Origin: an uncultured Actinomycetes bacterium
GTDB lineage: Bacteria > Actinomycetota > Thermoleophilia > UBA2241
Reading direction: 5' to 3'
NCBI GenBank assembly: GCA_963799395.1
Contig: CAWCWZ010000060.1
Location: 3,321 to 67,320, forward strand
Length of the DNA: 64,000 nucleotides
A program made the translations under genes and the position numbers. Shown here piece after piece: positions 6,868-55,466 of the stretch; position 1 is the stretch's first letter; every line of letters begins with the position of its first letter. The notes beneath the pieces were generated by a model. The model saw only the letters and a program-made list of their open reading frames with translations. It was not told the origin of the DNA and made no database searches.

Positions 6868-6937
6868 GGTCAGAGAGGGGACCGGCGGCCCGCGGCCGCC
6901 GGTCCCGCCGCGCCTCTGCGAAGCGCCGCGCCGGCCA

Positions 6938-8520
<1,583 letters not shown>

Positions 8521-18777: not shown

Positions 18778-19638
18778 GTGAGCACCCCACCCGAACCGGC
18801 GTCGACGGCCGGCTTTACCGCGACCCAGCGACAGCGCCTGCACGAGCTGGGCGCCACCGCCGCGGCAAGCGACGAGACCTTCGCCGGCGCGGCCGCCCGC
18901 GACGCGGCCTTCCTGCTCCTCGAGACAGAGCTCGCCGGCGCCGGCCGGGCGGCGCTCGACGCCCTGCGCGCCGGTGCGCGCCTGCCAGCGCTGCGCCGTC
19001 TCGAGGAGTCCCTGCGCGCCGCCCTCACCGGGGCCGGTCTGGTCGAGGTCGTGACCCCGGCCATCGTCGGCGGCGACGCCCTGCGCAAGATGGGCGTCGA
19101 ACCCGGTAGCGAGATGGGCGAGCAGGTCTTTCGCCTCGACGGCGACCGCTGCCTGCGGCCGATGCTCGCCCCCAACCTCTACACGCTGCTGCGCCGCCTC
19201 GCGCGCATCTGGAAGCAGCCCTTCGCGATCTACGAGATCGGCTCGTGCTTCCGGCGCGACACGAAGGGCAGCCGGCACCTGAACGAATTCACCATGCTCA
19301 ACCTGGTCGAGCTCGGCACGCCGCTCGAGCGCCGCGACGAGCGTCTGCGCGAACTGGCCGCCGTCGTGCTCGCGGCCGCCGGCGTGACCGGCTACGAGTT
19401 CACGCGCAAGCGCTCCGAGGTCTACGGCGACGAGCTCGACGTGGTCGTCGGCGGCCTCGAAGTCTGTTCCACGGCGCTCGGACCGCACCCGTTAGACGAC
19501 GCCTGGGCGATCACCGACCCGTGGGTCGGTCTGGGCTTTGGTCTCGAGCGCCTGCTCGTCGCCCGCGACGGCCTGGCCGGTATAGAGCGCGTGGGGCGCA
19601 GCCTGCGGTACCTGGACGGGGTGCGCCTGCAGCTGTAG
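18778..19638 (+). CDS. pylSc: Pyrrolysyl-tRNA synthetase, C-terminal catalytic subunit (split PylS)
   Basis: Class II aaRS core with PylS-specific blocks (CLRPMLAPNLY, HLNEFTMLNL, DPWVGLGFGLERLL, SLRYLDGVRLQL). Closely resembles Desulfitobacterium PylSc. GTG start, TAG stop. Confidence 0.85.
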   Translation: MSTPPEPASTAGFTATQRQRLHELGATAAASDETFAGAAARDAAFLLLETELAGAGRAALDALRAGARLPALRRLEESLRAALTGAGLVEVVTPAIVGGDALRKMGVEPGSEMGEQVFRLDGDRCLRPMLAPNLYTLLRRLARIWKQPFAIYEIGSCFRRDTKGSRHLNEFTMLNLVELGTPLERRDERLRELAAVVLAAAGVTGYEFTRKRSEVYGDELDVVVGGLEVCSTALGPHPLDDAWAITDPWVGLGFGLERLLVARDGLAGIERVGRSLRYLDGVRLQL

Positions 19639-19687: not shown

Positions 19688-20329
19688 CTACCTGCCCAGC
19701 AGGGCGTCGATCTTCTTGACGCCGTCGGCGGCGTCTTCGGCGTAGGCGTCGGCGCCGATCTGGTCGGCCCAGCGCTGGGTGCAGGGGGCGCCGCCGACCA
19801 CCGTCTTGAAGGGCAGGCCCTCGGCGCGGATGGCGGCGATCACCTTCTTCTGCTCCTCCATGGTGGTGGTGAGCAGGGCGCTCATGCCGATGACGTCGGC
19901 CTGCTCTTCCTTGGCCCGGGCGATGAAGGTGGCGGCCGGCACGTCGCGGCCGCAGTCGGTGACGGCGTAGCCGTGGGCCTTTAAGTAGGCGATGACGATG
20001 GCCTTGCCGATGTCGTGGACGTCGCCCTGCACGGTGCCGACGATGACGGTGCCCTTCTTCTCGCCCTCGCCGCCCACCAGGGCGGCGTTGCAGACCCTCG
20101 TGGCGGCGTCCATCGCCTGGGCGGCCAGCATGAGCTCGGGCAGAAAGACCTCGCCCGACTCGAAGGCGTCGCCGATCTGGCTGATGCCGACGACAAAGCC
20201 CTGGTTGATGATCTCGCCGGGGGCCATGCCGGCAGCGAGGGCGCGCGTGGCGACGTCCTCGGCGGCGGCGGCGTCGAAGTTGACGATCGCAGCGATCGCC
20301 TCTTGGATGAGCTCGTCTTTGTTGGCCAT
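19688..20329 (-). CDS. Methyltransferase cognate corrinoid protein (MtmC/MtbC/MttC family)
   Basis: ATG at 20329 with GAGGAGG upstream. B12-binding DxHxxG motif (DVHDIGK) and an N-terminal cap helix domain typical of methylamine corrinoid proteins. Confidence 0.8.
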   Translation of the reverse strand: MANKDELIQEAIAAIVNFDAAAAEDVATRALAAGMAPGEIINQGFVVGISQIGDAFESGEVFLPELMLAAQAMDAATRVCNAALVGGEGEKKGTVIVGTVQGDVHDIGKAIVIAYLKAHGYAVTDCGRDVPAATFIARAKEEQADVIGMSALLTTTMEEQKKVIAAIRAEGLPFKTVVGGAPCTQRWADQIGADAYAEDAADGVKKIDALLGR

Positions 20330-20547
20330 AGCGTGTGACTCCTCCTCGAAAAGTCGTGCCGTCCACTCGCGTGTCGTAGGGCGAAGTGAGTCGCGTCGCC
20401 GGCTCCGTCGCACGAGAGTCTCCTGCGGCCGGCAGCCGAACGGCGCCGGGCACAAGTATACAGGACGGCTCAGGCGCAAGCGCGGCTCGCGGCCGACCCG
20501 CCGATCCGGCGCCCCGACGGCGGCGACCCGCTTGATACAATGCGTTC

Positions 20548-22089: not shown

Positions 22090-22431
22090 TCAGTCCCTCC
22101 GCTCGCCCTCGCGCAGGTACGAGCCGTAGCCGCGCTTGAACTTCGTGGCGGCGTACTTCTGCAGCTTCCACTCGGGGATGCGGCACTCGGGACAGGCCTC
22201 GAAGAACAGCTTGTTGCGCAGCCAGCGGGCCGAGCGGCTGTTCTTGGAGTCGCGCACGATCATGGTCTTGCCGCAGTGGGTGGTGAGGCGGGCCCGCGTG
22301 CCCAACACCTCGAACTCCTTGATGCCGTGCAGCAGCCCGCGCCGCGAGGGCCACAGCTTCATCTTCTCGACGAGCCTGAAGAGCGGCACCTGCTTGCGGT
22401 AGTAGACGGCCTTGTTGGGGTCGGTCGGCAC
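22090..22431 (-). CDS. pylSn: PylS N-terminal tRNA-Pyl-binding domain protein (split PylS)
   Basis: LWPSRRGLLHGIKEFEVLGTRARLTTHCGKTMIVRDSKNSRSARWLRNKLFFEACPECR aligns with the Methanosarcina PylS N-domain, including the zinc Cys/His ligands. Probable GTG start at 22431; an alternative ATG lies at 22362. The Arg-rich N-terminal 72 aa of the track ORF are rejected. Confidence 0.75.
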   Translation of the reverse strand: MPTDPNKAVYYRKQVPLFRLVEKMKLWPSRRGLLHGIKEFEVLGTRARLTTHCGKTMIVRDSKNSRSARWLRNKLFFEACPECRIPEWKLQKYAATKFKRGYGSYLREGERRD

Positions 22432-22550
22432 CGCACGAGTGTAGCAAAGCCGAAGGCGGGTTGTGGCCCTGTCGCGCCCGGGCGGTCCGCCCGCGTACCG
22501 CCCGCGACTGAAGCGCTCGCCACCGCACGGCCGGCGAGCGGGCCGTGGAG

Positions 22551-24335
22551 CTACGTGAAGGTGCGATAGAACGGCAGACCGTCGTAGACGGCCCGCGTGG
22601 CGCGCCCGTCGATGACCGTGTCGAACGACAGACGGTCGGGGAGCCACGAGGGCGCGCCGACACGAAAGTCGCCGCCGGACAGCGGCACGAGCTCGAGCTC
22701 GTCAGCCGGGTAGAGCCAGGGCGCCACCATCAACAGGCGATTACGCCGGCAGATGACGGAGAAGACGGGGGCCCAGGGGTCGTACGAACGGTAGGTGCCG
22801 GTGAGCCGCGCCCACGAGGGGTCGGGGGCGGGCGCCGCGAGCGGCGCCCGCCCCTCGCGCGCAAACCACGAGGGGCCGCAGGAAAGCGCGACGACGGCGC
22901 CGCCGTCGTCGCGCTCGAAGCGCAGGTGGAAGCGGTCCCAGTCGGGGTGGGGCGCGAGGAACAGGTCGTCGCCCCTGCGCTCCAGAGCGATCTCGGCGAC
23001 GGCCGACGGCTCGGCGCCGACGCCCGAGCCGACGCTCGCGGCCGGAGCGGCCGGCAGGCGCAGGAACAGACGCTCGTCGTGAGCGGCCAGCGTCAGACCG
23101 CTCCAGGCTGGTTCGTCGTCGCCCGAGCTCGATGGCTCGCCACCCGCCGCGGCGTCCCGGCGGGCGTCGCCGGAGGGCGGCGCGACGTAGACGCCGGCGC
23201 ACTCGGCGGCCGCCGCGCCGATGATCGTCGGGTCGGCGGGCGGCGCTGGCGGGGGCACAGGCGCCCCCGCCAGCGCCGCCCGCAGCGCCCGCAGCGCGAA
23301 GCGCGCGATCTCCATGCGGTCGTCGGACCCGTTCACCAGCACGATCACGCCGATACCGGACGCCGGGTCGGTCACGAGCAGGCTGCTGAAGCCGACCATG
23401 CCGCCTGAGTGACCGACGCACTCGTGCCCGTCGAGGGTCCGCGTGACGAGCCCGTACCCGTAGAACGAGCCCGGCTCGTCGGGGTCTTCGACCACCCTGC
23501 TCGTCCAGAGCGCGAAGCTCTCGTCGCTCAACAGGCGGCCGCCGGGACCCGCGCCGCGGTTCAGGATCAGTCGCGCCCAAGCCAGCATGTCGGCGGCCGA
23601 CGAGACGATGCTGCCATCGGCCGTACAGCTCTCGATGCGCGTGGCTTCGACGACCGGCCGGCCGCCGTGCGCCGGCCGGTCGCCGCAGAGCTGCTCGTAG
23701 CCGGTCGCGACGGGCAGAGGCGAGTCGCGCCTGATCGTCGTCTCGGAGTCGATCATGGCGAGCGGCGCCACGATGCGATCGGCCACGAGCGTCGCGACCG
23801 GGCGCCCGGTCACCGCCTCGAGAGCCAGGCCGACGAGCTTGTAGCCGTCGTTCGAGTAGAGGAAGTGTTCGCCCGGCCCGTAGGTCAGCTCGGTCTCGCG
23901 CAACGACCACAGCGCGCAGCGCGCTTCGGCGCTGAACTCGGTGCCCATGGGCAGCCCCGACGTGTGGCTGAGCAGGTGGTGCAGCGTGATCGGGGCAAAG
24001 CGCGAGCGCACCGAGAACCAGGGCACGTAGTCGGTCACCGGCGCGTGCAGATCGACGCGGCCGGCTTCGTGCTCCTGGAGGAGCACCGCGGCCGTGAACG
24101 ACTTGCTGATCGAGCCGATCTGAAAGCGCGTGTCGGGTTCGACCGGCGTGCCGGCCGCGACACTCGCGAGGCCCTGACAGACGAAGCCCAGCGTGCGCTC
24201 GCTGTCGGTCAGCCCGATCGCCACGCCCGGAGCAGCGAGCCGCGGCAGGCGCGCCGCGACGAACTCGTCGACGGCCCCGAGAGCGGTGATCAGATGGTCG
24301 TGCCGGCTTGAGTCGGTGAAGCTCACGCCGACCAT
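22551..24335 (-). CDS. Beta-lactamase-family serine hydrolase (class C / PBP4-like)
   Basis: SxxK motif (SISKSF), YSN motif (LYSNDGY) and HSGG motif in a 594 aa ORF. Confidence 0.7.
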   Translation of the reverse strand: MVGVSFTDSSRHDHLITALGAVDEFVAARLPRLAAPGVAIGLTDSERTLGFVCQGLASVAAGTPVEPDTRFQIGSISKSFTAAVLLQEHEAGRVDLHAPVTDYVPWFSVRSRFAPITLHHLLSHTSGLPMGTEFSAEARCALWSLRETELTYGPGEHFLYSNDGYKLVGLALEAVTGRPVATLVADRIVAPLAMIDSETTIRRDSPLPVATGYEQLCGDRPAHGGRPVVEATRIESCTADGSIVSSAADMLAWARLILNRGAGPGGRLLSDESFALWTSRVVEDPDEPGSFYGYGLVTRTLDGHECVGHSGGMVGFSSLLVTDPASGIGVIVLVNGSDDRMEIARFALRALRAALAGAPVPPPAPPADPTIIGAAAAECAGVYVAPPSGDARRDAAAGGEPSSSGDDEPAWSGLTLAAHDERLFLRLPAAPAASVGSGVGAEPSAVAEIALERRGDDLFLAPHPDWDRFHLRFERDDGGAVVALSCGPSWFAREGRAPLAAPAPDPSWARLTGTYRSYDPWAPVFSVICRRNRLLMVAPWLYPADELELVPLSGGDFRVGAPSWLPDRLSFDTVIDGRATRAVYDGLPFYRTFT

Positions 24336-24475: not shown

Positions 24476-24548
24476 TGGCGGGGAGTAGGGGAGTTACACC
24501 CCTCTACGCGGATTTAGAGTCCGCGCTGATCCTTCCGATCGACCCCCC
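24476..24548 (-). tRNA. pylT: tRNA-Pyl (amber suppressor, anticodon CUA)
   Basis: Minus-strand sequence GGGGGGTCGATCGGAAGGATCAGCGCGGACTCTAAATCCGCGTAGAGGGGTGTAACTCCCCTACTCCCCGCCA. 7-bp acceptor stem, 4-bp D-stem with a 5-nt loop, 6-bp anticodon stem, loop CUCUAAA, short variable loop, T-loop lacking TPsiC, discriminator G and encoded CCA. Nearly identical in architecture to Desulfitobacterium tRNA-Pyl. Confidence 0.85.
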
Positions 24549-24625: not shown

Positions 24626-24940
24626 TCAGGCTGCAGCGACGTCGGACCGCGGCAGAGCCGCGACGATCTGCTTCGCCTCCTCCAGGCCGAATGCCTTGAG
24701 CGACGTCGTGCGGACCGTCCCGCCCGCGCTCAGCGCGAGCGCGAACGCCGCCGCCGCCTTGTCGTCGGGGCCTTCTCCGATGGCCACATAGTCGAAGTCG
24801 CCCATGGTCATGTACATGTCGAGCACCTTGCCGCCCATCGACTCCCAGAGCTTGATGCCGTCAGAGATGCGGTCCGGCGAGTGCTTGACGTCGGCGATGC
24901 CCTTGTCGGTCAGTTTCATGAGCAAGATGTAGGTCACCAT
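24626..24940 (-). CDS. GYD domain protein
   Basis: 104 aa. ATG at 24940 with GAGGAGG upstream. GYD family signature (MGDFDYVAI...PDD). The track fuses it to pylD only because the pylD frame reads through. Confidence 0.7.
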   Translation of the reverse strand: MVTYILLMKLTDKGIADVKHSPDRISDGIKLWESMGGKVLDMYMTMGDFDYVAIGEGPDDKAAAAFALALSAGGTVRTTSLKAFGLEEAKQIVAALPRSDVAAA

Positions 24941-25043
24941 ACGCCCGCCCTCCTCGTGAACGACACAACTGAAGACCAGCCGACCGATGCGCCAGACCGC
25001 AGAGCGTAGCACCGGCCAACGGCGGCCGAGGACGAACCGTGGA

Positions 25044-25897
25044 TCAGCCGACCAGCGCCCGCACGGCCATGACGGCGACGCCGAGGGCGAGCGGCTCGTG
25101 CACGAGCCGCTCGCCCAGCGCCCGGGCGGCCGCGGCCGTGACGCCGGGCGGCAGGCCCGGTGAGCAGACGATGCCGTCGGCGCCCGCCCAGTCGGCGTCG
25201 ATGAGATCGGGTGTCGGCGTGGCGTCGAGCACGAGCCGGCAGCGCCCTGAGGCCGGCGGCTAGGGTGACCGGCGTGACCGGCAGCGCGCCGGCCACCGCG
25301 GCGAGACGGTCCTGGTCGAGCTCGCAGACCAGCACGTCGGCGCCAAGCTCGACGAGGCGCGGCGGCCGCCGCCCGACCGACCGGGCCGAGGCCGATCACC
25401 AGGACCGGTTTGCCGGCGACGCCGCCCCGGCCGGCAGCGGCGTCGGGAGCGGCGTCCCTCCCGGCAGCGGCGTCGAGGGCCGCGACGTAGGCGTGCGCCG
25501 TACACGGGTCGTCGTCGGCCACCGCGCGGCGAGCGAAGTCGAAGGCCAGGAACCCGCGGTCGTCGGCGGCGAAGACCAGATCGTCGTCGCCGGCGAGCGC
25601 CTCGGCGAAGCCGCCGACGTCGGTCGCCTCGGTCACGCGCACGGCGCGGCAGCCCAGATGGCAGCAGATCGCCGCCACGCAGTCGGTGAAGCCCGGGATC
25701 AGGCCCTCGCCGCTCGTGATCGGCACGACGGCGACGGCGGCGTGGGCGAGGGCGTCGCGAGCGACGCCCTCGCCCACGCCGCAGGCCCGCGCGGCGAGCG
25801 TCGCGAAGTCGCAGCCGGTGAGCGCTGCGAGCGCCCGCTCGACCTCGTCGAGATGCGCGGTCAGAGAGCGGACGTCGCCTTCGACGAGACGTGTCAC
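25044..25897 (-). pseudogene. pylD: pylD (3-methylornithyl-N6-L-lysine dehydrogenase) disrupted by two +/-1 frameshifts
   Basis: The N-terminal 170 aa (VAVVPITSGEGLIPGF...VLVIGLGPVG), the middle segment (VLVCELDQDRLAAVAGALPVTPV) and the C-terminus (LVLDATPTPDLIDADWAGADGIV...) each match PylD. They lie in three different frames, in track ORFs 24626-25897, 24934-25335 and 25044-25232. The ATG overlaps the pylC stop. Confidence 0.75.
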
Positions 25898-27196
25898 GGG
25901 GCGCCCTCGCCACGGTCCGACGCCGGCCCGGGCTGAGACTCGGGCACGAGCTCGAGACCGTGCTCGTCGGCGAGGCGCGTGACGGTGGCGGCGGCCCGCG
26001 CGCGGGCCGCCACCGCCGTCGCCCCGCGCGTCATCAGCACCGCGACCCAGCGGCCCCGCGAGGCGCCGCTCTCGGGGCGGTCGGTGAGCACCACGTCGGC
26101 GCCGTACAGGCCGTCGCAGCGGCGCAGGGGGCCGGCGCCGCCGACGATGTGCTCGCCGAGCACCTCGACCCTGCCGTCTTCGACCAGCACGTGCTCGTAG
26201 ACGGCGCCACGCCGGGCCCCGATAGCCACGGCCGGCGGCCGCTCGGCGGCGAAGGTCTCGGCGAGCAGCGCGACGATGTTCGCGTCGCTTGCGTGGTACA
26301 CGGCGGCGGGCGTCTGGCTGGGCAGGCGAGCGTCGATCTCGATCACTTTGGGCGTGCCGTCGGCGGCAACCATGACTTCGACGTCCATCACGCCGGCGAG
26401 GCCCACGCCCTCGGCCAGGCGCCGGGCGGTGGCGTCGAGCGCGGCCAGCGTCGCGGCGCTCACCGTCGCGGGCGACGACGCGCCGCCGGCCTCAGCGCCG
26501 CCGGATTGCCGCGACCCGCCGCCCGCCTCGCCGCCGGCGCCGCCGGTCGCCGCGCCGCCGGCGCCGTCGACCGGCGCGACCACGCGCTTGCAGTCGTAGG
26601 CCGCGTCGAACTCGAGGAAGGTCGGCAGGAGCGTCAGAGCCTCGCCGCCGAGCGCGATCACCTCGACCGACAGCGACGGTCCGGCCACGAACTCCTCGAC
26701 CACCGCCTCGGCGCCGTGAGCGGCGAGGGCGGCGCGCGCCAGCGCCAGGCCGGGTTCCGACCGCACGAGCTGAACGCCCGTGCTGCCGCTGCCGACGCTG
26801 GGCTTGACCACCGCCGGAAAGCCGCAGCGCGGCCAGGGCCGCGGACGCGGCACGTCGAGCCGCTCGAACAGCGCGTTGGAGCGCAGCTTCGACCGCGTCA
26901 CCGCATAGGCGCCCAGGTCGAAGAGCAGCGGCAGGCCCATCATCGGCACGAACGAGGTGAGGAACTCGAGGGCGCGGTCGTCCTCGCAGGCCGGCAGCAC
27001 GGCGTCGCACGACAGCAGCACCTCGCGGGCACGCGCCGGATCGGCGACGACGTCGAAGACGTGGACCTCGGTGGCCAGGCCGACCGCCGGACGGTCGGGC
27101 CGGCGGTCGATCAGCACCGACGTCGTAGCCGGCCTCGCCGGCCAGATAGGCGGCCTCGGTGCCCTGCAGCTTGCCGCCGACGACGGCCAGCCTCAT
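25894..27196 (-). pseudogene. pylC: pylC (3-methylornithine--L-lysine ligase, ATP-grasp) with one frameshift near the 5' end
   Basis: The N-terminal 26 aa MRLAVVGGKLQGTEAAYLAGEAGYDV are in track ORF 26492-27196. The remainder, with the PylC-typical MDVE...VIEIDARLPSQTP, is in ORF 25894-27117. Confidence 0.75.
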
Positions 27197-27241
27197 GCCA
27201 CCCTCCCCCGCGCCGCGATCGTGGCCCTCACGCGGCCGCCC

Positions 27242-28337
27242 TCATGCCGGCGCCGGCTGGTCGACCGGGGCCCGGCGGGCCGCGGCCCGGCGCTCGCGGG
27301 CGGCGGCGACCCAGTCCGCATACTCGCCCGGGGTGGCGACGCGCAGCCCCAGCGCCCGGAGCCGGGCGGCGACCTCGGTGGCCGTGCGCAGGCCTTCGTC
27401 GATGTCGAGCTCCGACTGCGACACGCCGGCCAGGCCGGTGTCGGGCGGCACGATCGAGGTGACGACGTTGGCTCCGGCGGCGATGCGCGACTCGAGCCCG
27501 GCGATGCCGTCGACGTCGAGCGAGGCGGGGATCAGACGGTCGGGCATGGCGAGGCGCATGGTGGCGATCGTGACGAGCTCGCCGAGGCGGCCGGCCGGCG
27601 TGAGGTCGGCGAGCGGCGTGCCGCGCTGCGGCACGAAGGTCATGACGCGCACCTGATCGAGCGGTTCGTCCCGCATGGCGGCGACCGTGAGCGCGCGCTC
27701 GGCGACCGTCTCCCCCACGCCCAGCAGCATGCCGTCCTCGACCAGCATGCCCAGGGCGGCCGCGTCGCGCCGCGCCTGCAGGCGTTCGTCGAACTCCTGT
27801 CCGGTGCGTAGCCGCGAGTAGAGCTCGCGGGCGTGGGTCTCCTGGTAGCAGGCGTACCACTCCGCGCCGATGTCGCGCAGCGCCCCCAGCACGCCGGGCG
27901 TGACGACGCCGGGCGACACCATCACCGGCAGGCTCGGTGGCCGCCTTCACGGCGGCCACGAGCTCGACGAGGGCGTCGAACTCGCCGCTTGCGTAGTAGA
28001 GGGGGTCCTCGCCCATGGTCAGGTCGATCAGATGCACGCCCGATGCGGCGAGGCCGGCGCTGATCGCGACCACCTCGTCGAGCGACTTGCGATAGCGGGG
28101 GCTCTCGGCGTTGCCGCGGCGGTACAGGCAGAACGTGCAGCCGTTGCGGCACCAGGTCGAGAAGTAGACGAAGCCGTAGAGGAACACCGCGTCGCCGAAC
28201 CGGCGGCGGCGCAGCTCGGCCGCGGCGGCGAACAGCCCCGCCGCGGCGGCCGGATCGTCGATCGAGAGCAGGGTCTCGATCTCGCCGGCCGAGGGCGTCT
28301 CGCCGGCGAGCGCCCGCGCGAGGATGCCGTCGACCAC
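27242..28337 (-). pseudogene. pylB: pylB (methylornithine synthase, radical SAM) with one frameshift
   Basis: The N-terminal part, with YGFVYFSTWCRNGCTFC and LTMGEDPLYY, is in track ORF 27228-28337. The C-terminal part (MVSPGVV...YACYQETH...RLIPASLDVDGIAG...GANVVTSIVPPD) is in ORF 27242-27925. The junction near 27930 is a 1-nt indel. Confidence 0.75.
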
Positions 28338-28439
28338 GGCCTGACCGGCGCTTGCCGGTCACGACCGCTGCGGCCGGCCAGACGCCGGAGCGGCCGTGGA
28401 CGCCGCGGCGTCGCCGCCCTGGAGCCGCACCCGGACCAG

Positions 28440-29120
28440 GATCCGCACCCGGCTCGGACGTCGCGAAGCGCAGGACATCGTCGACCGGCAGCCGCTTGGT
28501 CCCGCCGGGACTGCTCGCCGGCACGCCGACGGCGACGATCGCGACCAGGTGCGCCGGCGCCTCGACCCGCAGGAGCTCCTCGAGACGCGGGGCGGCCAGC
28601 ACCGGCGCGCTCATCCAGCACGAGCCGTAGCCCAGCGCGTGCGCGGCGGTGACCAGGAGCTGTACGGCGGCGCCGACGCTCTGCAGGTCGGGCCGGGCGC
28701 GCAGCCGGTCGCGTTCCTCGCGCGACACGCCGCGCAGCGCGAGCAGACGGTCGCCGTGCGACTCGTAGGGCAGGCCGAGCACGGCGATCGCGAGCGGCGC
28801 GTCGGCGAAGAACGTGGCGTAGCCGCGCAGGCGCGCGTCTCGCGCTCGAGGCCCGCCGCCTCGACCTCGGGCCAGCCGGCCATCTCGTCGAGGCGCTCCT
28901 CGACCGCGGTGCGCATGGCCGACAGCAGCGCGCGGTCGTCGACCGCGATGAAGCGCCAGGGCTGGGCGTTACCGGCGTTGGCCGCCAGGGTCGCCAGGCG
29001 CACCATCTCGCGTACGTCGTCGCGCGGCACGGACTCGCTCGTGAAGCGGCGCACGCTGTGGCGGCCTTCGACGGCGGCCACGAGCCCGGGAAGGGCTTCG
29101 GACGGGGGACGGCGAATCAT
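28440..29120 (-). pseudogene. Nitroreductase family protein, frameshifted
   Basis: The N-terminal part (HSVRRFTSESVPRDDVREMVRLATLAANAGNAQPWRFIAV) is in one frame. The C-terminal part (DLQSVGAAVQLLVTAAHALGYGSCWM) is in another (ORF 27922-28782). The 3' end is uncertain. Confidence 0.55.
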
Positions 29121-29257
29121 CACTTCCACATGGTACCAGAGGCGAAGGGGGTGCTTCGTTTGCGGAAGTGGGGTGACCCGGCGCGACCCATGAGCCGGCG
29201 CGGCGCACGCGAGGGCGAGGCGGCGGTCGCCGCCTCGCCCTCGTTGCAACGAGTGAG

Positions 29258-29767
29258 TCAGGCCTGGACGGCCACCGTCTTGTCGGCCTTGTCGACCTTG
29301 AGGTCGATCGCCAGGACGTACGGGTTCTGACAGAAGGCGATGCACTGCGGGTCGCCGTCGCACAGGTCGCACTTGTAGGCGACCTTGCGCTCGGGGTGCT
29401 CGTGGATGACGCCGTACGGACAGACGTCGTAGCAGTCGCCGCAGTTCGTGCACTTGTCCTCGTCGACCGACCAGCACGACGCCCTTGACCGACTCGCCGA
29501 CCTTCTCCGTGCTGGCGAACGTGCGCCTGACGGGCGTGACCGTGATCGCGCGCGTCACGATCGCGTCGTCGGGACACGCCTCCTGGCACTTCGCGCAGGC
29601 GGTCTGCAGGCAGGTGTGGCCCTTGATCACGGCCGTGGTCGGGTTGCACGTCGGCGAACAAACGGACACGCGACGGCCGGTAAGCCGCCTTCGTGGTACG
29701 CCGAGCACGCCGAGCTCGCACATGTGGCAGCCGGTGCACTTCTTGCTGTGATCATGACGTGTGGCAT
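29258..29767 (-). pseudogene. Four-cluster [4Fe-4S] polyferredoxin (AorA/HycB-like), at least 2 frameshifts
   Basis: ATG at 29767 (MPHVMIT), 32 nt after the AOR stop, with GGAG upstream. Cys motifs CTGCHMC, CLQTACAKCQEACP, CTNCGDCYDVCP and CDLCDGDPQCIAFC are spread over three reading frames. The last two lie in a frame I translated by hand, ending at TGA around 29258. Confidence 0.55.
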
Positions 29768-29799
29768 GACTGGCTCCCTGTCCTTGTCGGTGCCACCGC

Positions 29800-31642
29800 C
29801 TAGAGCCGCACGTCGACGCCGAGCTCGGTGAGCTTCGCCTCGGTGGGCACACCGTTCGCGTCCCAGCCGCGCAGCTCGTAGTACTGCGCCGCAGGGACTC
29901 GCCGCAGGTGCGCTTCGCCGATGACCTTGCCGGCGGACGGGCCCTGGTGTGGGCGAACTTCTCGCTGCAGGCTTCTTGGGCACGCGGTCGTCGGCTTCGA
30001 CGCCCTCGCGCAGGTTGAACAGGCGCCCGAGGTTCCAGACTCGCTCGCCCATGAGCATGACCTCGTCTTCGGGACAGCTCGCGCTCCAGAGGTGCGTCAT
30101 GCAGCTGCGAGATCTGCTCGTGGTCGACCGCCCAGAAGTCGCACCAGATGCCGCAGAACTTGATCGAGCTGAAGTTCTGGCTGAGAAGTCGAGCGGCCGG
30201 TTGCCGATGGCGCCCTCGACCTTGCCCTCCATGGTGGCCGCCGGCATGGCGCCCTCGACGATCTCGTCGCCCACCGGGTACGTGCGCATGTGGCAGCCGC
30301 CGCGGTCGGAGGTGGCGTAGCGATGCTCATGCCGAACGAGCCGCGCGGGTCGTAGCCGGGCAGTCTCGAGGTTCTTGACCTGCATGGCGAGCTCGGGCGC
30401 GTCCGTACTTCTCGGCGAGAGCTGCGCACGCCCAGCGCGAGCTCGGCGCCGACGCCCTGCGCTTGCGGCGAGCTGCCCGGGCGACCTTGAGTACGCGTCG
30501 GCCTCGCCGAAGCGCACGCCGAAGTCGTGGATGCCCTTCTCGGTCATGTCCATGGCAAGCCCGATCACGGCGCCCGAGGAGATCGTGTCGAGGCCCCACT
30601 CGTCGCACTCCTCGTTGAACTTCATGAGAGCGTCGATGTCGTCGATGCCGCAGTTCGCGCCGCACAGGGCGATGGTCTCGTACTCGGGACCCTCGCCCAT
30701 GACCTTCTCGTCGTGCCAGGTGACAGCGTGCACGTTGCGGCAGGCGATGGCGCACTGGTAGCAGGCGCGCTTCTTGATGCGGATCTTCTGGAACGACTCC
30801 GAGTTCAGGTTCTTGGCGCCCTCGAAGTAGCCCTCGGACCAGTTCCTGGTGGGCATGGCGCCGGCGCCGTTGACCAGGTCGACGAGAATCGGCGTGCCCT
30901 CTTCGTGGGCCCAGAGGTTGTCGTCGGTCAGGACGAACTCGCTGTGCGATGCGCGCCATGTCGGCGAGAAAGGCCTTGGCGTCGCCGACCGTCACGCTGC
31001 CGGTGCCGCGGACGGCGATGGCCTTGAGGTTCTTGGAGCCCATCAGGGCGCCGTGACCGCCACGACCGGCCTTGTGGTACTGATCGGTCGACAGGCAGGC
31101 CCAGGGGATGAGCGTCTCGCCGGCCGGGCCGATCGACAGGGTCTTGGCCTCGGGGTCGAAGTCGTCGCGCAGGGCCTGCTCGATCTCAGAGGTCTTCATG
31201 CCCCAGTACCTGGGCCTGGCGGGCACGACTCGACGACGTCGTCGCGGATGGTGACGACCGTCGGTTCGGCGGCCTTGCCGAGGACGATGATCGCATCGTA
31301 GCCGGCGAACTTCATCTCGGGAGCGAACGAGCCGCCCACGTAGCTGTCGTTCAGGATGCCGGTGGTCGGACTCTTGGCGCCGACGACCAGTCGCGACGTG
31401 GTCGACACGTTGGTGCCGGCGAACGGTCCGGTCATGAGGAACAGCGGGTTCTCGGGCGCCCAGGGGTCGACCAGGGGCGGCACGTACTCCCACATGTAGC
31501 GAAACAGGAGCCCCTTGCCGCCCACGTACAGTGCGGCCCACTCCATGTTGAGAGGCTCGACCTTCGTGGTCTTCGCGCTCATGTCGATCGTGAGCACGTT
31601 GCCCTTGTAGAAGTCCACGTGGCCCTCCCTCTGGGTTGTCAC
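29800..31642 (-). pseudogene. Tungsten-type aldehyde:ferredoxin oxidoreductase (AOR family), at least 6 frameshifts
   Basis: AOR-homologous segments occur in alternating frames. These are the N-terminus (track ORF 31196-31642), the GRGGHGALMGSKNLKAIAV block (ORF 30327-31892), and the middle and C-terminal parts (ORF 29627-30856: PTRNWSEGYFEGA, ACYQCAIAC, GPEYETIALCGANCGIDD, YATSDRGGCHMR, GERVWNLGRLFNLREG). The last 45 aa (YYELRGWDANGVPTEAKLTELGVDVRL) and a TAG stop are in a third frame. Junk segments lie between the homologous blocks. Confidence 0.75.
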
Positions 31643-32170: not shown

Positions 32171-33169
32171 CTAAAGCCGGGCGGCGACGGCCCGGGCGAA
32201 CTCCTGCGTGCCGGCCGCGCCGCCCAGGTCGGGCGTCAGCTGCCGACCCTCGGCGATGACGGCGGCCACGGCGTCGTGGAGGCGCGCGGCGGCGACGGTC
32301 TCGCCCAGGTGCTCGAGCATGAGCACGCCCGACAGCAGAAAGGCCGTGGGGTTCACGATGTCGCGCCCGGCGATGTCGGGGCCGCTGCCGTGCACGGCCT
32401 CGAACACGGCGGCGTCGGCGCCCACGTTGGCCCCCGGCGCGACCCCGGGGCCGCCGATCAGTCCGGCGCAGAGGTCGCTGACGATGTCGCCGTAGAGATT
32501 GGGGCAGACGAGCACGTCGAAGCGCTCGGGCGCCATCACGAGCTGCTGGCAGAGGTTGTCGACGATACGGTCGTCGAACTCGACGTCGGGGTAGGCCGCG
32601 GCCACCTCCCGGGCGACGCGCAGGAACAGGCCGTCGGTGAGCTTCATGATGTTGGCCTTGTGCACGGCCGTGACCCTGTGGCGGCCGTGAGCCCGGGCGT
32701 ACTCGAAGGCGTAGCGCACGATGCGCTCGCTGCCGCGCCGCGTGATGACCTTGACGGACTCGGCGACGTCGGGAGTGAGCTGGTGCTCGATGCCGGTGTA
32801 CAGGTCTTCGGTGTTCTCGCGCACGACCACGAGGTCGATGCCCGTGAAGCGACTGGGCACGCCGACGAGCGACTTCGCCGGTCGCAGGCAGGCGTAGAGG
32901 TCGAGAGCCACGCGCAGCGCCACGTTGACCGAACGAAAGCCCGATCCCACCGGAGTCGTGACCGGCCCCTTCATGGCGACCTTCGTGGCCCTGACCGACT
33001 CGACGACCTCGTCGGGCAGCGGTGTGCCGCGGCGCTCCAGCACCGCGGCGCCGGCGTCGTGGCGCTCCCAGACGATGGCCACGCCGCTGGCGGCGATCAC
33101 GGTCTCGAGGGCGGCGGCCAGCTCGGGGCCGGTGCCGTCGCCGGGAATGAGCGTCACATGATAGGCCAT
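32171..33169 (-). CDS. leuB: 3-isopropylmalate dehydrogenase / homoisocitrate dehydrogenase family
   Basis: ATG at 33169 ([16 protein letters not shown]). IDH/IMDH fold motifs. The N-terminal 58 aa of the track ORF are read-through. Confidence 0.8.
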
Positions 33170-33174
33170 CGACT

Positions 33175-33705
33175 TCAGCCCTCGGGCAGGTGGAACTCGC
33201 CGTACTTGCGGAAGTGCTCGACGAGGCCGCCGTCGGAGAGGATCTTGAGCATGACCGGCGGCAGCGGCGCGAACGGCACGACGGCGCCCTTGGTCAGGTC
33301 GCGGACCTCGCCGGCGGCGAGATCGACCTCGAGGTCGTCCCACTGCTCGATCGCGCTCGTGTCGCAGACGAGCACCGGCAGCCCGACGTTGATCGCGTTG
33401 CGAAAGAAGATGCGGGCGAACGACTGGGCGAGCACCGCCCCGACGCCAGCGATGCGGATGATGCGCGGTGCGTGCTCGCGGCTCGAGCCGAGGCCGAAGT
33501 TGCGTCCCCCGACCACGAAGTCGCCCGGCTTGAGGCGCTTGGCGAACTCGGGGTTTTCGTCTTCGAGGACGTGCTTGGCCAGCTCGGGCAGGTCGGTGCG
33601 CAGGTGGAACAGCCGGCCCGGGGCGATCTGGTCGGTCGAGATGTCGTTCCCGAACGTCCAGGCGCGCCCACGCAGGACGTCGCTCGCACCGCCGGCCGCG
33701 GGCAT
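33175..33705 (-). CDS. leuD: 3-isopropylmalate dehydratase small subunit (archaeal/LeuD type)
   Basis: 176 aa aconitase swivel-domain protein ([12 protein letters not shown] motif). Confidence 0.8.
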
Positions 33706-33708
33706 CGC

Positions 33709-34224
33709 TCAGACGTCGCTTTCGGTGATGGTCACGCTGGTCATGGCGAGGCCCGGCTCGTGGGCGCTCATGGGGTCGCGCTCGGGGATGGAGTAGACGA
33801 CGTCCATGCCCGAGGTGACGCGACCGAAGACCGCGTGCTTGCCGTCGAGATGCGGCGTGGCCTTGTGGGTGATGAAGAACTGCGAGCCGTTGGTGTTGGG
33901 GCCGGCGTTGGCCATGGAGAGCACGCCGGGGCCGTCGTGGCGCAGGCTCGGGTCGAACTCGTCGGCGAACCTGTAGCCGGGGCCACCGCGACCGGTGCCG
34001 GTCGGATCGCCGGTCTGGGCCATGAAGTTACCGATGACGCGGTGGAACGTGACGCCGTCGTAGTAGCCGTCGCGCGCCAGGAAGACGAAGTTGTTGACGG
34101 TGACGGGGACCTTGTCGGCGTAGAGCTCGGCGACGATGTCGCCGCGCTCGGTCGAGATGGTGGCGGTGTAGCGCCTGGCCGGGTCGATGACCATCGGCGG
34201 CGGCGCGTCGTACTGCTTAGCCAT
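33709..34224 (-). CDS. Cyclophilin-type peptidyl-prolyl cis-trans isomerase
   Basis: From [10 protein letters not shown] onward. Cyclophilin motifs ([22 protein letters not shown]). It is inserted between leuC and leuD. Confidence 0.8.
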
Positions 34225-35515
34225 GCTGCTCTCCTTTGTCTGAAAGCTCGCCCGAGCCGAGCAGCTCGCGCGGATCAACGATCTCGCCGGCGACGGCCGC
34301 CGCGGCGGCCGTGAGCGGCGAAGCGAGGTAGATGGCGCCCTGGGGATTGCCCATGCGTCCCTTGAAGTTGCGGTTGGCCGTGCTCACGCAGACCTCGCCG
34401 TCGGCGAGGATGCCTTCGTGGACCCCGACGCAGGCGCCGCAGCCGGGGTTGGTGACGACGGCGCCGGCGTCGGCGAACGCCTGCAGCAGGCCTTCGTCGG
34501 CGGCCGCCCGCCAGACGGCCCGCGAGGCCGGTGTGACGATCAGGCGGGTGCGGGCCGCGCGCTGGTGGCCGCGCAGGAGCCGGGCCGCCGCGCGCAGGTC
34601 CTCGAGGCGCCCGTTCGTGCAGGTGCCGATGAGGACCTGGTCGACTCTGGTGCCGGCGACCTCGGCGGCCGGGTGCACGTTGTCGACCGTGTGCGGCGCC
34701 GCGACGACCGGCACGAGCTCGTCGGCGATGTACGACAGCGAGCGCTCGTAGGCGGCGCCCGGGTCGGGCGCCACCGGGCGATAGTGGGCCTCGCGGTCGT
34801 GGGCGGAGAGGAACGCCCGTGTTACCTCGTCGGCGGCCACGAGGCCGGTCTTGGCGCCCGCTTCGACGGCCATGTTGGTCAGGGTGAGCCGTTCGTGCAT
34901 GGGCAGCGCCTCGATGGCCGGGCCGCCGAACTCGAGCGCCTTGTAGGTGGCGCCGTCGGCGCCCAGGCGGCCGATGATCGTGAGGATGAGGTCTTTGGCG
35001 GTGACGCCGTCGGCGAAGCGCCCACCGACCTCAATACGGAAGGTCTCGGGCACGCGCAGCCAGGTCTGCCCGGTCGCCATGCCGATGGCGACGTCGGTGG
35101 AGCCCATGCCCGTGGCAAAGGCGCCCAGGGCGCCGGCCGTGCAGGTGTGCGAGTCGGCGCCGATCACGATGTCACCCGGCTTGGCGTAGGTTTCGGCGAC
35201 GCGCTGGTGACAGACACCCATCTCGACGTCGGAGAGCGTCGCTCCCGTCTCGGCGCAGAAACGGCGCACGAGCTGGTGGGCGTTGGAGAGCTCGACCCGC
35301 GGCGACGGCGCCGCATGGTCGATGAAGAAGACGGCGGTCGGCACGCTCACGCGCACCCGTCCGAGGTCGCGCAGCTGCTGGATGGCGAGCGGCCCGGTGC
35401 CGTCCTGGGCGATGGCCAGATCGACGAGGCAGACGACGATCTGGCCGGGGACGACCGCTTCGAGGCCGGCGTGCGCGGCGATGACCTTCTCGGCGATGGT
35501 GGCGGGCGCGGTCAC
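34217..35515 (-). CDS. leuC: 3-isopropylmalate dehydratase / homoaconitase large subunit (LeuC type, about 430 aa)
   Basis: Aconitase family catalytic domain with Fe-S cluster Cys ligands (GTCTNG, NPGCGAC). Confidence 0.8.
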
Positions 35516-35534
35516 GCGGGGCCGCCGGGCGCGA

Positions 35535-49228: not shown

Positions 49229-49454
49229 CGCATCACTCCGCTTCGTCACCACGAACGGCCCACGGGGGCGTTCCATCATCAACGTCGGCTGCGTGTCTGC
49301 TCGAGCCGGTCGCCGCGCGTCGGCATCGCGGCCCGAGACCCGGACGACCGCTCGACCCATTGTCGCGCCTCGGCGGCGGGGCGCGCAACCGCGAGCCCCG
49401 GCGGCGGGGCGCGCCACCGCGCGCCACCGCCGACGGCCGCGAGCGGCTCGCGCC

Positions 49455-52926: not shown

Positions 52927-53038
52927 CGCGCCCTCCTACTGTAGATCCACTGTTCCACGCGTTCAGAATATGAGGCTGGAGGCCCCTGAGCGGAGCCGTC
53001 CTATTGTGACGGATTCTACAAGGTCCGAAATTGGGGGG

Positions 53039-54326
53039 TCAAACCGCCGGACCGGGCGGCTCCTGCACGCCACCGAGGCCCCGGGCGGCGGCCCGTGCTT
53101 CGTCGTAGACGTCCTTCGCCGGCCGCCCGGCGCCGGCCGCCACACGGCGGCAGTCTTCGTACTCCGGCGAGGCGGTGACGAGGCGCTCGCCGAGGAACCC
53201 GAGGCGCACGCGCACCTCCTCGCCTGCGACTGCGACGGTGCCGCGGCGCTCGTCGAGCAGCAGCCGCCGCGACGGGCAGCACGCGCAGGCCGAACGTCGA
53301 GGTCTCGCGAAAGGCGATCTCGGCGAGCGCCGCCCGCGCCGCCGGTCGCGCCAGCACGTGCAGCACGGTCCCCGGCCGGCTCTTCTTCATGGTCGCCGGC
53401 GTCGACCAGACGTCGAGCGCCCCCGCCGCGAGCAGGCGCTCGGCGGCCTCGGCCAGGAGCTCCGCGGGGAGGTCGTCGATGCTCGTCTCGAGCAGCTCGA
53501 CGTCGTCTTCGGACCACGGACCGGCGTCGTGGCCGGGTGAGCGGTCGAGAGGCTCGACGAGCACGGCGCGTAGCACGTTGGGCCGGCCGGAGAGCTCGCG
53601 CCGGCCGGCACCGAGGCCCGAGCCGGCCAAACGTCCGGCCGGCAGAGCGCCGAACTCGTGGACGAGGTGCGAGAGCAGCGCGGCGCCGGTCGGCGTGGTC
53701 AGCTCGCCGGTCTCGGCGCCGGCGCCGGCCGTCGGCAGGCCGCGCAGGAGCTCGATCACGGCGGGGGCCGGCACGGGCAGCTCGCCGTGGGCGGTGTGGA
53801 CCGTGCCGCCACCCAGCACCGGCGGCGAGGCGACGACCCGCGCCGGCGCGAGCTCGACGGCGAGCGCCAGCACGCTGATCAGGTCGACGGCGGTGTCGAG
53901 ACTCGCGAGCTCGTGCAGGTGCTCGCCCTCGCCGCCGTGCACGGCGCGTTCGGCCGCTGCCATGCGCTCGGCGACGGCGACGACGCCGTCGGCGACGGCG
54001 TCGTCGAGGGCCGAGCGCCGCACCGCGGCGACGAGCTCGGCGAAGGTCTCGAAGCCGGGCCGGTCGTCGACGGTGAAGCGCGCCGCCGACAGGCCGCCGC
54101 GCCGAACGGTCTCGACGTGCGCGACGGCTGGATCGATGCCGGCCGCCGCGAGCGCCGGCGCGACGACCCGGGCGAGCGGCTCGGCGGGGTCGGCCGCGGC
54201 ACTGCCCGCGGCGCCGGCCGTACTCGCGGCGCTGCTCGCGCGCAGCGCGAGCAGCGCCGCGGCCAGCATGTCGCCGCTCACCCCGCTCGCACACTCGAGG
54301 TAGAGCAGCGGTCTGTCTGAGCGCAC
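53039..54326 (-). pseudogene. larC: LarC (nickel-pincer cofactor nickel insertion, CTP-dependent), one frameshift near the 3' end
   Basis: N-terminal LLYLECASGVSGDM and the body are in track ORF 53016-54449. The C-terminal domain (RRLLLDERRGTVAVAGEEVRVRLGFLGERLVTASPEYEDCRRVA) reads in a different frame from about 53270. Start probably a GTG near 54326. Confidence 0.6.
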
Positions 54327-54424
54327 CTGAGACCTCCGTGGGAACCCATCGTTCGACAGGCCGCATCCTAGCATCGCCGCGGCCCCTGCCGCGCCGACGC
54401 CGTTCGTCAGATACAATCCCCCCC

Positions 54425-55466
54425 ATGAAGATCGCCCAGATCGCCCCACCCTGGATCACCGTGCCGCCGACCGGCTACGGCGGCACCGAGTGGGTCGTCA
54501 AGCATGTCTGCGACGGCCTCACCGCCGCCGGTCACGACGTCGTCCTGTTCGCCTCGGGCGACTCCCAGACGCCGGCCGAGCTGCGGGCGTTGTTCGCCGA
54601 ACCCCAGACGGCGATGATGGCGCTGCCCTCGGCGATGACCTCCTACGACGTCCGCCACGTGTCGCATGCCGTCGGCCAGATCCAGGCCGACGGCGACTTC
54701 GACGTCGTCCACGACCACTCCGGCTTCTTGCTCGTCGCCCTGCGCCGGTTCCTCGATCTGCCGCCCGTGCTGCACACGGTGCACTGCGCCTTCGACACCC
54801 ACGCCTATCCGTTCTACGACCAGTTCCGCGAGGCCGTCGCCTACGCCTCTATCAGCGACTTCCAGCGCACCCTGGGACCGCCCGGCATGGCCTGGGCCGG
54901 CACGGTGCACAACGCCCTGCCGGTCGCCGGCTGGCCGCTCGTCACGGCCAAGGACGACTACCTGCTGGCCTTCGGACGGGTCTGCGAGGACAAGGGGTTC
55001 CACCTGGCCATCGACATCGCCCGGCGCACCGGTCACCGCCTCGTCATGGCCGGCGTCGTGCAGGACTGGTATCGTGACTACTTCGAGCGGCGCATCGTCG
55101 CCCGAGATCGACGGCGACCGGGTCGTCTTCGAAGCCGAGGTCACAGACGAGCGCAAACGCGAGCTGTTCGCCCACGCCAAAGGCTTTCTCTTCCCGATCC
55201 TGTGGCCCGAGCCGTTCGGCCTCGTGATGGTCGAGGCGATGGCCACCGGCACGCCGGTGATCGCGCTGCGCAACGGTTCGGTCGACGAAGTGGTCGACGA
55301 CGGCGTGACCGGTTTCGTCTGCGACGACGTCGACCAGATGGTGGCCGCCGTGGCGCGGCTCGACGAGATCGACTCCCACGCCTGTCGCCGCGCGGTCGAG
55401 GAACGCTTCAGCGTGGCCGCGATGACCGCCGGCTACGAGGCGCTCTACACCGGGCTCGTGGGCTAG
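54425..55466 (+). pseudogene. GT4 family glycosyltransferase, one frameshift near 55100
   Basis: N-terminus MKIAQIAPPWITVPPTGYGGTE... in track ORF 54338-57049. C-terminus (EIDGDRVVFEAEVTDERKRELFAHAKGFLFPILWPEPFGLVMVEAMATGTPVIA) in ORF 54666-55466. Confidence 0.6.

Follow-up and report, generated by a model that had tools for sequence, protein, structure and literature searches.

Probable consensus error, clustered over six conserved genes, may hide an intact pyrrolysine system in an uncultured actinomycete

Introduction

Described bacterial pyrrolysine (Pyl) gene clusters, represented here by loci from Desulfosarcina, Desulfocicer, Peptococcaceae and Synergistaceae (L040-L052), have the arrangement pylSc-pylB-pylC-pylD-pylSn together with pylT. 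Decaying bacterial islands, such as those of Mycobacterium leprae, show nonsense and missense substitutions, dN/dS moving toward 1, larger deletions and a deletion bias. Bacterial pseudogenes in general are deletion-biased, their indels vary widely in size and repeats in them undergo slippage, and mutation-accumulation and pseudogene studies in bacteria put neutral decay at about 10 substitutions per small indel. The consensus errors typical of Nanopore data fall mainly in homopolymers. Nanopore metagenome-assembled genomes (MAGs) carry consensus indels (PMC9262707), and spurious frameshift pseudogenes arise in low-coverage as well as long-read assemblies (BMC Genomics 2024, PMC11017572).

Here, we analyze a 64-kb stretch of DNA (the window) from an uncultured actinomycete, in which the genes for an aldehyde:ferredoxin oxidoreductase (AOR), a polyferredoxin, a nitroreductase-family protein, PylB, PylC and PylD, all on the minus strand, are each split over several reading frames. 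Taken at face value by annotation pipelines, the locus would be recorded as six pseudogenes, and hence as a genome that lost Pyl biosynthesis while keeping pyrrolysyl-tRNA synthetase and tRNA-Pyl. That story is attractive but probably false: we consider it very probable that the damaged patch is uncorrected consensus error in six otherwise healthy genes.

Results

Private indels cluster over six genes

Frame calling by a 7-state frame HMM and by a plot of GC3 in each frame places stop-free frame switches at about 25036, 25235, 25358, 27118, 27933, 28449, 28840, 29468 and 30946, and finds 29647-30184 too scrambled for frame calls. A four-way DNA alignment of the window with its syntenic relatives L001, L002 and L003 reveals 25 window-private indels of 1-2 nt between 25248 and 31229. 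Frameshift-aware protein-to-DNA alignment counts 23, with 13 private 1-2 nt indels in the AOR gene as assembled (29800..31642), five frameshifts in the polyferredoxin gene (29258..29767) and one secure frameshift in the nitroreductase gene (28359..29123; at about 28828-28830, with possibly another in the low-complexity C-terminal tail). The remainder comprises one secure frameshift in pylB (methylornithine synthase, radical SAM; 27242..28362) at about 27934, one in pylC (3-methylornithine--L-lysine ligase; 25894..27196) at 27118, and two in pylD (25044..25897) at about 25360-25365 and at 25248. The total becomes 24 if a doubtful indel at the pylB N-terminus is included, and 18 frameshifts survive a very strict penalty; the same procedure finds no internal frameshifts in the intact DNA of L003. 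The frameshift cluster that a sequence-only reading of the window had described across these genes is therefore real, being seen by the HMM, by DNA alignment and by protein-guided alignment. That reading was right that indels are many there, but its count of 13-14 falls below the strict, protein-guided and DNA-based counts alike. The junctions that it had placed near 25240, 25365, 27115, 27930, 29940 and 30850-31240 correspond to our events at 25248, 25360-25365, 27118, 27934, 29944, 30946 and 31227-31229.

Such clustering greatly exceeds chance expectation (binomial P for at least 23 of 25 indels in 6.7 of 64 kb about 7e-21, computed post hoc), and indel density within the patch is very uneven: a hot core at 29468..30466, spanning the 3' third of the AOR gene and the 5' half of the polyferredoxin gene, packs about 16 indels into about 1 kb, versus one in the 1.3-kb pylC gene. 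The edges of the patch do not fall on gene boundaries, since it starts 413 nt inside the AOR gene and ends about 200 nt short of the pylD stop codon. Co-oriented genes extend past the patch on both sides (22.1-40.6 kb). Because of these flanking genes and these edges, the earlier description of the damage as confined to an operon, while correct that the indels cluster there, is partly circular.

Elsewhere, no gene in the alignable flanks (9.7 kb compared with relatives) has a window-private frameshifting indel, and the claim that only two frameshifts occur in the other approximately 57 kb of the window holds. One is an isolated +1 frameshift in larC (nickel insertion protein; 53016..54449, minus strand) at about 53265-53270, where a G has been added in gcg[g]cgg; the other is an isolated frameshift in a GT4 glycosyltransferase gene (54338..55466, plus strand) at about 55100, either a G added between gtc and ccc or the loss of 2 nt. 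Neither lies in a homopolymer, and both resemble the indels of the patch in kind, as +1 events outside homopolymers.

Splitting of the ORFs by in-frame TAG (Pyl) codons is ruled out by the GC3 phase shifts and by the 1-2 nt gaps against relatives. Functional recoding would instead have the cell bypass the frameshifts through programmed ribosomal frameshifting or transcriptional slippage, and programmed frameshifting has reportedly been found in a larC gene of Lactobacillus. The 23 or more sites in the patch, however, share no common motif, none lies on a slippery run and none is conserved in any relative, all of which encode uninterrupted ORFs; we regard recoding as exceedingly improbable.

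Repaired genes are full length and conserved in relatives

Once the frames are repaired, all six genes are full length, with 75-86% amino-acid identity to their L001 counterparts, and their frames hold natural terminators only, with no premature stops. The repaired AOR has 610 residues, is 86% identical to that of L001 and ends at the same terminating TAG as in L002 and L003; its close homologues are all about 600 residues long, with 99% query coverage. The repaired polyferredoxin, which has multiple 4Fe-4S motifs, has 168 residues. The nitroreductase-family protein resembles BluB and the C-terminal domain of FbiB, and the stop codon of its gene overlaps (GTGA) the upstream of two candidate pylB starts, GTG at 28362 and GTG at 28337. 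PylB, PylC and PylD, broken as assembled, exceed the NCBIfam equivalog cut-offs only after frame repair, with bit scores of 441 for PylB (TIGR03910, cut-off 348), 312 for PylC (TIGR03909, cut-off 248) and 168 for PylD (TIGR03911, cut-off 150).

Comparison with orthologous loci, which the sequence-only reading had proposed, finds the orthologues intact and the indels private to this assembly. L001 and L003, short-read-type relatives whose ORFs we inspected, carry the six genes as single uninterrupted ORFs in unchanged order, and no window indel recurs in the relatives aligned, 5-12 for each gene and L053-L055 included. The block from AOR to pylD is kept over deep divergence in at least 45 relatives; it is an old syntenic block conserved in its clade and not a recently acquired island, and this conservation also speaks against its ongoing decay. 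The AOR-polyferredoxin module is more changeable, being lost in L005-L010, reduced to a remnant in L053, and variable among relatives in both presence and allele type. An intact gene for a GYD-domain protein (24626..24940, minus strand) occurs in the window and in L002, L005, L011 and L053, but L001 and L003 lack it. Exact-protein look-ups with the GYD protein, a beta-lactamase-like protein and PylSc returned no same-species copy, nor did a scan of genome and metagenome contigs with PylC (best matches 83-86%) or a query of a 5.8-billion-protein collection with the repaired AOR (best match 86%).

Substitutions do not accompany the indels

The indels could mark a genuine and very recent pseudogenization, in which the six genes decay while pylS, pylSn and pylT stay intact as a fossil of genetic-code expansion. 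Consistent with such decay, all six genes are unreadable as assembled, the damage is limited to one contiguous and functionally related block, and the AOR-polyferredoxin module is evidently dispensable in the relatives that have lost or degraded it. Neutral decay that produced 23-25 indels nonetheless predicts at least about 200 additional substitutions, most of them at codon positions 1 and 2, along with some nonsense codons.

Scored where L001, L002 and L003 agree, window-unique substitutions amount to 4.5% in the region and 4.3% in the hot core, while the two flanks have 3.8% and 4.4%; despite about 1.7% indels, the hot core carries no excess of substitutions. Window-unique rates at codon positions 1, 2 and 3 are 2.6, 2.5 and 8.3% in the region versus 2.5, 2.4 and 8.0% in intact flanking genes, and the excess of region over flanks at positions 1 and 2 is just +0.13% (95% upper limit about +0.85%). 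Unique changes at residues invariant among the relatives number 1 of 315 in AOR, 1 of 93 in the polyferredoxin, 5 of 90 in the nitroreductase, 0 of 164 in PylB, 2 of 185 in PylC and 3 of 124 in PylD, no higher than in intact genomes, and the pooled figure (12/1171) compares with 14/1162 for flanking genes. Pairwise dN/dS values of the region genes likewise resemble those between intact relatives. Codon positions, invariant residues and dN/dS therefore give no sign that constraint has relaxed along the window's private branch, and the repaired frames contain neither of the two signs, premature stops and relaxed constraint, that had been named as marks of pseudogenization. The sequence-only reading had left two alternatives standing, and they now part: local consensus errors hiding an intact Pyl system fit every test that we ran, whereas the recently inactivated, decaying island finds no support, and we judge pseudogenization unlikely.

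The indel spectrum does not look biological

Insertions outnumber deletions by 18 to 7 in the DNA alignment, and all are 1-2 nt long. The affected base stands in a run of length 1 in 19 of 25 cases and of length 2 in the other 6; with no indel in a run of three or more, homopolymer slippage is ruled out, whether biological or Nanopore-type. A spectrum so rich in insertions, so narrow in size and so free of longer runs does not look biological and is a further point against pseudogenization. Insertion-rich random errors would fit better with uncorrected single-molecule reads. Extreme GC content, the cause that had been suggested for consensus errors here, is insufficient as an explanation, since the densest kilobase (29.47-30.47 kb) sits in a lower-GC segment (0.67-0.68), while the part of the patch with 76-77% GC (25-29 kb) has only 6-8 indels.

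One form of artifact would be a mixed or chimeric consensus, in which reads from co-occurring L001-type and L002/L003-type AOR-polyferredoxin alleles were collapsed together or cross-recruited at polishing. The variability of this module among relatives would suit such mixing, as would the course of the AOR gene itself, which matches L001 at about 91% identity from 31.6 to 30.55 kb and then becomes an interleaved L001-like/L002-like mosaic that begins exactly at the start of the hot core. The mosaic could equally be natural recombination, however; the indels are not significantly nearer to allele switch points than random positions (mean 4.9 versus 6.6 nt, P = 0.15), and 6-8 of them lie in pylB, pylC, pylD and the nitroreductase gene, where no two-allele structure is visible. 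Chimerism is accordingly a possible but rather doubtful source of the patch.

Long-read assemblies contain comparable patches

A comparable cluster occurs in L006, an unrelated locus from a related Nanopore-only MAG, where 14 private, non-homopolymer indels of 1-2 nt hit genes of lysine biosynthesis, namely those for homoisocitrate dehydrogenase, the homoaconitase small subunit and a PPIase, all intact in every other genome. Long-read MAGs of the Microflora Danica project were built with metaFlye and one round of Medaka (PMC12313526). By our frame-HMM event counter, run on all loci, frame-switch events are about 2.5 times commoner in Nanopore-only Microflora Danica loci than in other loci, and often clustered, a figure that we take as a relative measure only because overlapping genes trigger the counter falsely (non-Nanopore loci give 0-5 such calls each, typically 0-3).

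The remaining pyrrolysine genes are intact

The other components of a Pyl system are undamaged. A tRNA-Pyl with anticodon CUA (24476..24548, minus strand), found with ARAGORN, is intact, conserved in relatives and 97% identical to that of L001 without gaps. An intact ORF at 22090..22647 (minus strand) contains pylSn, its residues 85-171 (about 22135-22395) forming the PylS N-terminal domain (TIGR03912, 123.5 bits, cut-off 51), and intact pylSc, for the catalytic subunit of pyrrolysyl-tRNA synthetase, lies at 18778..19638 on the plus strand (TIGR02367, 287.5 bits, cut-off 178). Beside it is an intact gene for an MtbC-like, methyltransferase-cognate corrinoid protein (19688..20479, minus strand), whose 209.6 bits against TIGR02370 are just below the cut-off of 215.3. 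The ORFs scanned, which cover most of the 64-kb window, include no Pyl-dependent methylamine methyltransferase with an in-frame UAG. Judged from these sequence features, the window most likely encodes an intact bacterial-type Pyl system (pylSc, pylSn, pylT and pylBCD) that the consensus-error patch hides.

Discussion

We infer that the cause of the patch is technical, and propose a mechanism on the same footing. The segment from about 25.25 to 31.23 kb is very probably weakly supported consensus in which random insertions and deletions of 1-2 nt went uncorrected, most densely at 29.47-30.47 kb, and the likely setting would be a long-read or hybrid metagenome assembly. Read support would have fallen locally, for example at a strain-variable segment, along a minority path of the assembly graph, or in a gap filled with uncorrected reads, and the same error process would also have struck, at a low rate, outside the patch, in larC and the GT4 gene. 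Intact pylSc, pylSn, tRNA-Pyl(CUA) and pylBCD would then underlie the errors, within an AOR-polyferredoxin-nitroreductase-pylBCD block conserved in a clade of peat and soil Actinomycetota.

Several observations count against an artifact. The indels avoid homopolymers, substitutions show no rise such as the L006 patch seems to have, and the patch lies inside a single functionally coherent block, as would be expected of a biological event too; the failure of its edges to coincide with gene boundaries tempers this last argument. If the indels were real, a localized, insertion-biased and nearly indel-only process would have destroyed Pyl biosynthesis and the AOR-polyferredoxin-nitroreductase genes while sparing pylSc, pylSn and tRNA-Pyl, and the window would have caught a genetic-code expansion at the moment of its loss. 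We know of no such localized, indel-only mutational mechanism described in bacteria, and consider this outcome very unlikely.

Error patches of this kind can be confined to a short stretch and spare homopolymers, which lets them escape genome-wide quality scores. Error and decay are nevertheless separable without reads, by tallying the private substitutions of the repaired frames by codon position and setting them against the flanks.

Set beside known cases, the window resembles pseudogene-rich genomes such as that of M. leprae in having adjacent frameshifted genes, but differs from that type of decay in lacking an excess of nonsense or missense changes, raised dN/dS, larger deletions and a deletion bias. 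It resembles long-read artifacts in that its small indels occur in a single assembly and break conserved genes, which pass family thresholds once repaired. Unlike classic Nanopore errors, its indels avoid runs of three or more and are dominated by insertions; unlike genome-wide Nanopore errors, they are localized to about 6 kb with a 1-kb core; and unlike the L006 patch, which seems to hold substitution errors as well, the window's patch has no detectable rise in substitutions.

The underlying biology, under our preferred reading of consensus error, is of modest interest in its own right: a complete Pyl system would be embedded in a conserved AOR-polyferredoxin-nitroreductase-pylBCD block adjoining lysine-biosynthesis genes, an arrangement widespread in peat and soil Actinomycetota MAGs. 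Like other bacterial pyl clusters, the window has a split pyrrolysyl-tRNA synthetase (pylSc and pylSn), a tRNA-Pyl(CUA), the gene order B-C-D and a cognate corrinoid protein nearby. Unlike them, it has no Pyl-dependent methyltransferase among the ORFs scanned, and its pyl genes are scattered across about 10 kb, pylSc being encoded on the other strand. It also differs in that a translationally coupled nitroreductase-family gene precedes pylBCD, and in that, in most relatives, AOR and polyferredoxin genes stand ahead of pylBCD, directly downstream of lysine genes of the AAA pathway.

Results

Across six minus-strand genes at 25.0-31.6 kb of the window (GC content ~70%), encoding an aldehyde:ferredoxin oxidoreductase (AOR), a polyferredoxin (polyFd), a nitroreductase-family protein (NTR), PylB, PylC and PylD, a GC3 phase plot and a seven-state frame HMM trained on the window itself reveal repeated jumps in coding phase without stop codons. 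They are followed on the same strand by an intact GYD-domain gene (24626-24940), lying between pylD and pylT, and a tRNA-Pyl gene with anticodon CUA (24476-24548). Beyond this stretch, the plot and the HMM detect jumps only at ~53262 and ~55102, where Pfam shows larC and a GT4 glycosyltransferase gene to be split; these are the only two outside frameshifts named by the sequence-only reading. Both are isolated, lie outside homopolymers (one extra G at ~53265-53270 in larC; either a G gained or 2 nt lost at ~55100 in GT4) and are of the same kind as the main events (non-homopolymer +1). Programmed frameshifting of larC reportedly occurs in Lactobacillus; no slippery site is evident at the larC frameshift in the window. 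Roughly 40 ORFs scanned in the rest of the window gave matches consistent with unbroken genes, including CysRS, GluRS, GatCAB and FTHFS, or no family match.

Using the long PylC fragment as a query against one genome per species and against JGI metagenomes, we recovered 52 loci in species-representative genomes and 60 in metagenomes. The nearest relatives, at 83-86% PylC identity, belong to uncultured Actinomycetota/Thermoleophilia of peat and soil. Synteny with the window extends over 20.3-37.3 kb in three loci, L001 (a Stordalen bog MAG), L002 and L003, at 77-87% nucleotide identity, and comparison of orthologues shows the six genes as six single intact ORFs in both L001 and L003. In a four-way alignment, 25 indels of 1-2 nt within 25248-31229 are private to the window, meaning that L001, L002 and L003 all agree among themselves at that position, while in 9.7 kb of aligned flanks private non-triplet indels are confined to intergenic DNA. 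Frameshift-aware protein-to-DNA alignment requires 13 shifts in AOR, 5 in polyFd, 1 each in NTR, pylB and pylC, and 2 in pylD, with one additional, doubtful shift at the PylB N-terminus; 18 are still required under a very strict penalty, and a control with the same aligner, L001 proteins against the more divergent intact L003 DNA, yields zero internal shifts. The frameshift cluster claimed for these genes is thus real in the deposited sequence and statistically overwhelming, and the original count of 13-14 indels, though right that many are present, was an underestimate. The events are very unevenly distributed, with ~16 in a hot core at 29468-30466; 18 are insertions and 7 deletions, and none of the 25 falls in a homopolymer run of three or more. 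At the NTR C-terminus (28370-28450), a low-complexity Pro/Gly/Ala-rich extension shared with two further pyl loci, L053 and L054, and absent from L001-L003, is 19 nt longer in the window, so that the exact end of NTR is ambiguous and one more frameshift is possible there.

The sequence-only reading offered two explanations: a decaying pyl/AOR island carrying a fossil genetic-code expansion, or consensus errors hiding an intact Pyl system. When the private indels are removed, none of the six frames contains a premature stop, only natural terminators, and the repaired proteins share 75-86% identity with those of L001. Repaired PylB, PylC and PylD score 441, 312 and 168 bits, above the respective NCBIfam equivalog cut-offs of 348, 248 and 150, and repaired AOR gives 99% coverage of many homologues, each ~600 aa. 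Pairwise dN/dS (0.22-0.65) resembles values between intact relatives. At residues invariant among relatives the window deviates at 1/315 in AOR, 1/93 in polyFd, 5/90 in NTR, 0/164 in PylB, 2/185 in PylC and 3/124 in PylD, no more often than in intact genomes and matching the flanking genes. Counted only at sites identical in L001, L002 and L003, window-unique nucleotide changes amount to 4.5% in the region, 3.8% and 4.4% in the flanks, and 4.3% in the hot core; by codon position they are 2.6/2.5/8.3% in the "broken" genes versus 2.5/2.4/8.0% in intact flanking genes, an excess at positions 1+2 of +0.13% (95% upper limit near +0.85%).

In bacterial mutation-accumulation and pseudogene studies, substitutions outnumber small indels ~10:1, and small indels are more often deletions and favor repeats. 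At that ratio, at least 23 neutral indels should be accompanied by some 200 substitutions or more, with ~10% extra divergence expected in the hot core by itself; instead, the patch contains indels without accompanying substitutions. Genuine recent pseudogenisation is therefore very improbable: the repaired frames show neither premature stops nor relaxed constraint, the indel spectrum runs contrary to the known bacterial bias, and conservation of the block across the clade is hard to reconcile with casual loss. We strongly favor consensus errors that hide an intact Pyl system, and regard the frameshift cluster as most probably not a true biological feature.

Discussion

Most likely, the cluster stems from weak consensus support over a local patch. 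Extreme GC, suggested earlier, is rejected, as the densest kilobase is only 67-68% GC. Relatives differ in whether they carry AOR-polyFd: the module is missing in L005-L010, and L053 retains only a polyFd 3' remnant (L053 3580-3680). Within 29300-31640 of the window, AOR is 91% L001-type over its 5' two-thirds, switching at ~30.55 kb, exactly at the start of the hot core, to an interleaved L001/L002-like mosaic, and the 3' part of AOR and polyFd are closer to the L002/L003 type. This mosaicism and patchy presence point to recombination and repeated module loss, and would fit a region that varies between strains and has reduced or mixed read support, a plausible trouble spot; indels show no significant proximity to allele switch points relative to random positions (P = 0.15). 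Because the indels show no homopolymer bias and an insertion excess, the sequencing platform cannot be named; errors that are random, rich in insertions and almost free of substitutions look more like uncorrected single-molecule reads than like polished Nanopore consensus.

A comparable cluster occurs in L006, a Nanopore-only Microflora Danica MAG (MFD09286.bin.2.48), where 14 private non-homopolymer 1-2 nt indels are tightly packed at ~5800-7200. These hit housekeeping genes (homoisocitrate dehydrogenase, homoaconitase small subunit and PPIase), each unbroken in the window and in every other relative, and are probably an error patch in the deposited MAG. By a rough count that includes some false positives, frame-switch events across all loci are ~2.5 times commoner in Nanopore-only loci than in others, and often clustered. 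Many also occur in Microflora Danica loci L018, L022, L024, L025, L027, L035, L037 and L039. The authors of the Microflora Danica catalogue, who used metaFlye for assembly and a single Medaka round for polishing, report Nanopore-associated errors where coverage is lower (PMC12313526). Low-coverage and long-read assemblies are documented sources of spurious frameshift pseudogenes (PMC11017572), and Nanopore MAGs need ~40-fold coverage (PMC9262707).

Judged from its genes, the window encodes a complete bacterial-type Pyl system with a split PylRS: pylSc (18778-19638, plus strand), pylSn (within ORF 22090-22647, minus strand), the tRNA-Pyl(CUA) gene (24476-24548, minus strand) and pylBCD (within 25044-28362, minus strand), readable after frame repair. 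An MtbC-like corrinoid protein is encoded at 19688-20479 (minus strand); the ORFs scanned, which span most of the 64-kb window, include no Pyl-dependent methyltransferase gene containing an in-frame TAG. The order homocitrate synthase ... homoisocitrate dehydrogenase - DUF3467 - AOR - polyFd - NTR - pylB - pylC - pylD ... pylSn - corrinoid protein - pylSc recurs in at least 45 Actinomycetota/Thermoleophilia loci, down to ~50% PylC identity, so the block is old and conserved in the clade rather than a recently acquired island. A GYD-domain gene separates pylD from pylT in the window, L002, L005, L011 and L053; L001 and L003 lack it, and pylT follows pylD almost directly.

Genes of AAA-pathway lysine biosynthesis (homocitrate synthase, both homoaconitase subunits and homoisocitrate dehydrogenase; 32171-36773) adjoin the block upstream, in synteny kept across the clade; pyrrolysine has two lysines as precursors. 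Downstream, at 46735-52926, lie genes for a NuoF-like flavoprotein and its NuoE-like 2Fe-2S partner, FolD, an FTCD cyclodeaminase domain and formate-tetrahydrofolate ligase, a C1/redox set consistent with a metabolism of methyl groups or one-carbon units in which Pyl-dependent methyltransferases could serve.

Only two Actinobacteria with PylRS appeared in a 2022 survey (PMC9630628). Our loci L001-L037 and L053-L110 place the system in dozens of MAG species, all uncultured Actinomycetota/Thermoleophilia of peat and soil, a modest addition to knowledge that is separate from the frameshift finding. The NTR stop overlaps a candidate pylB start (GTGA), and we speculate that AOR-polyFd-NTR may assist the radical-SAM enzyme PylB, either by supplying low-potential electrons or as accessory partners. 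This trio lies directly upstream of pylBCD in at least 45 Actinomycetota loci, and deltaproteobacterial and Firmicutes pyl clusters lack this arrangement; those loci, like the Synergistaceae ones, have the canonical compact order pylSc-pylBCD-pylSn, unlike that of Actinomycetota.
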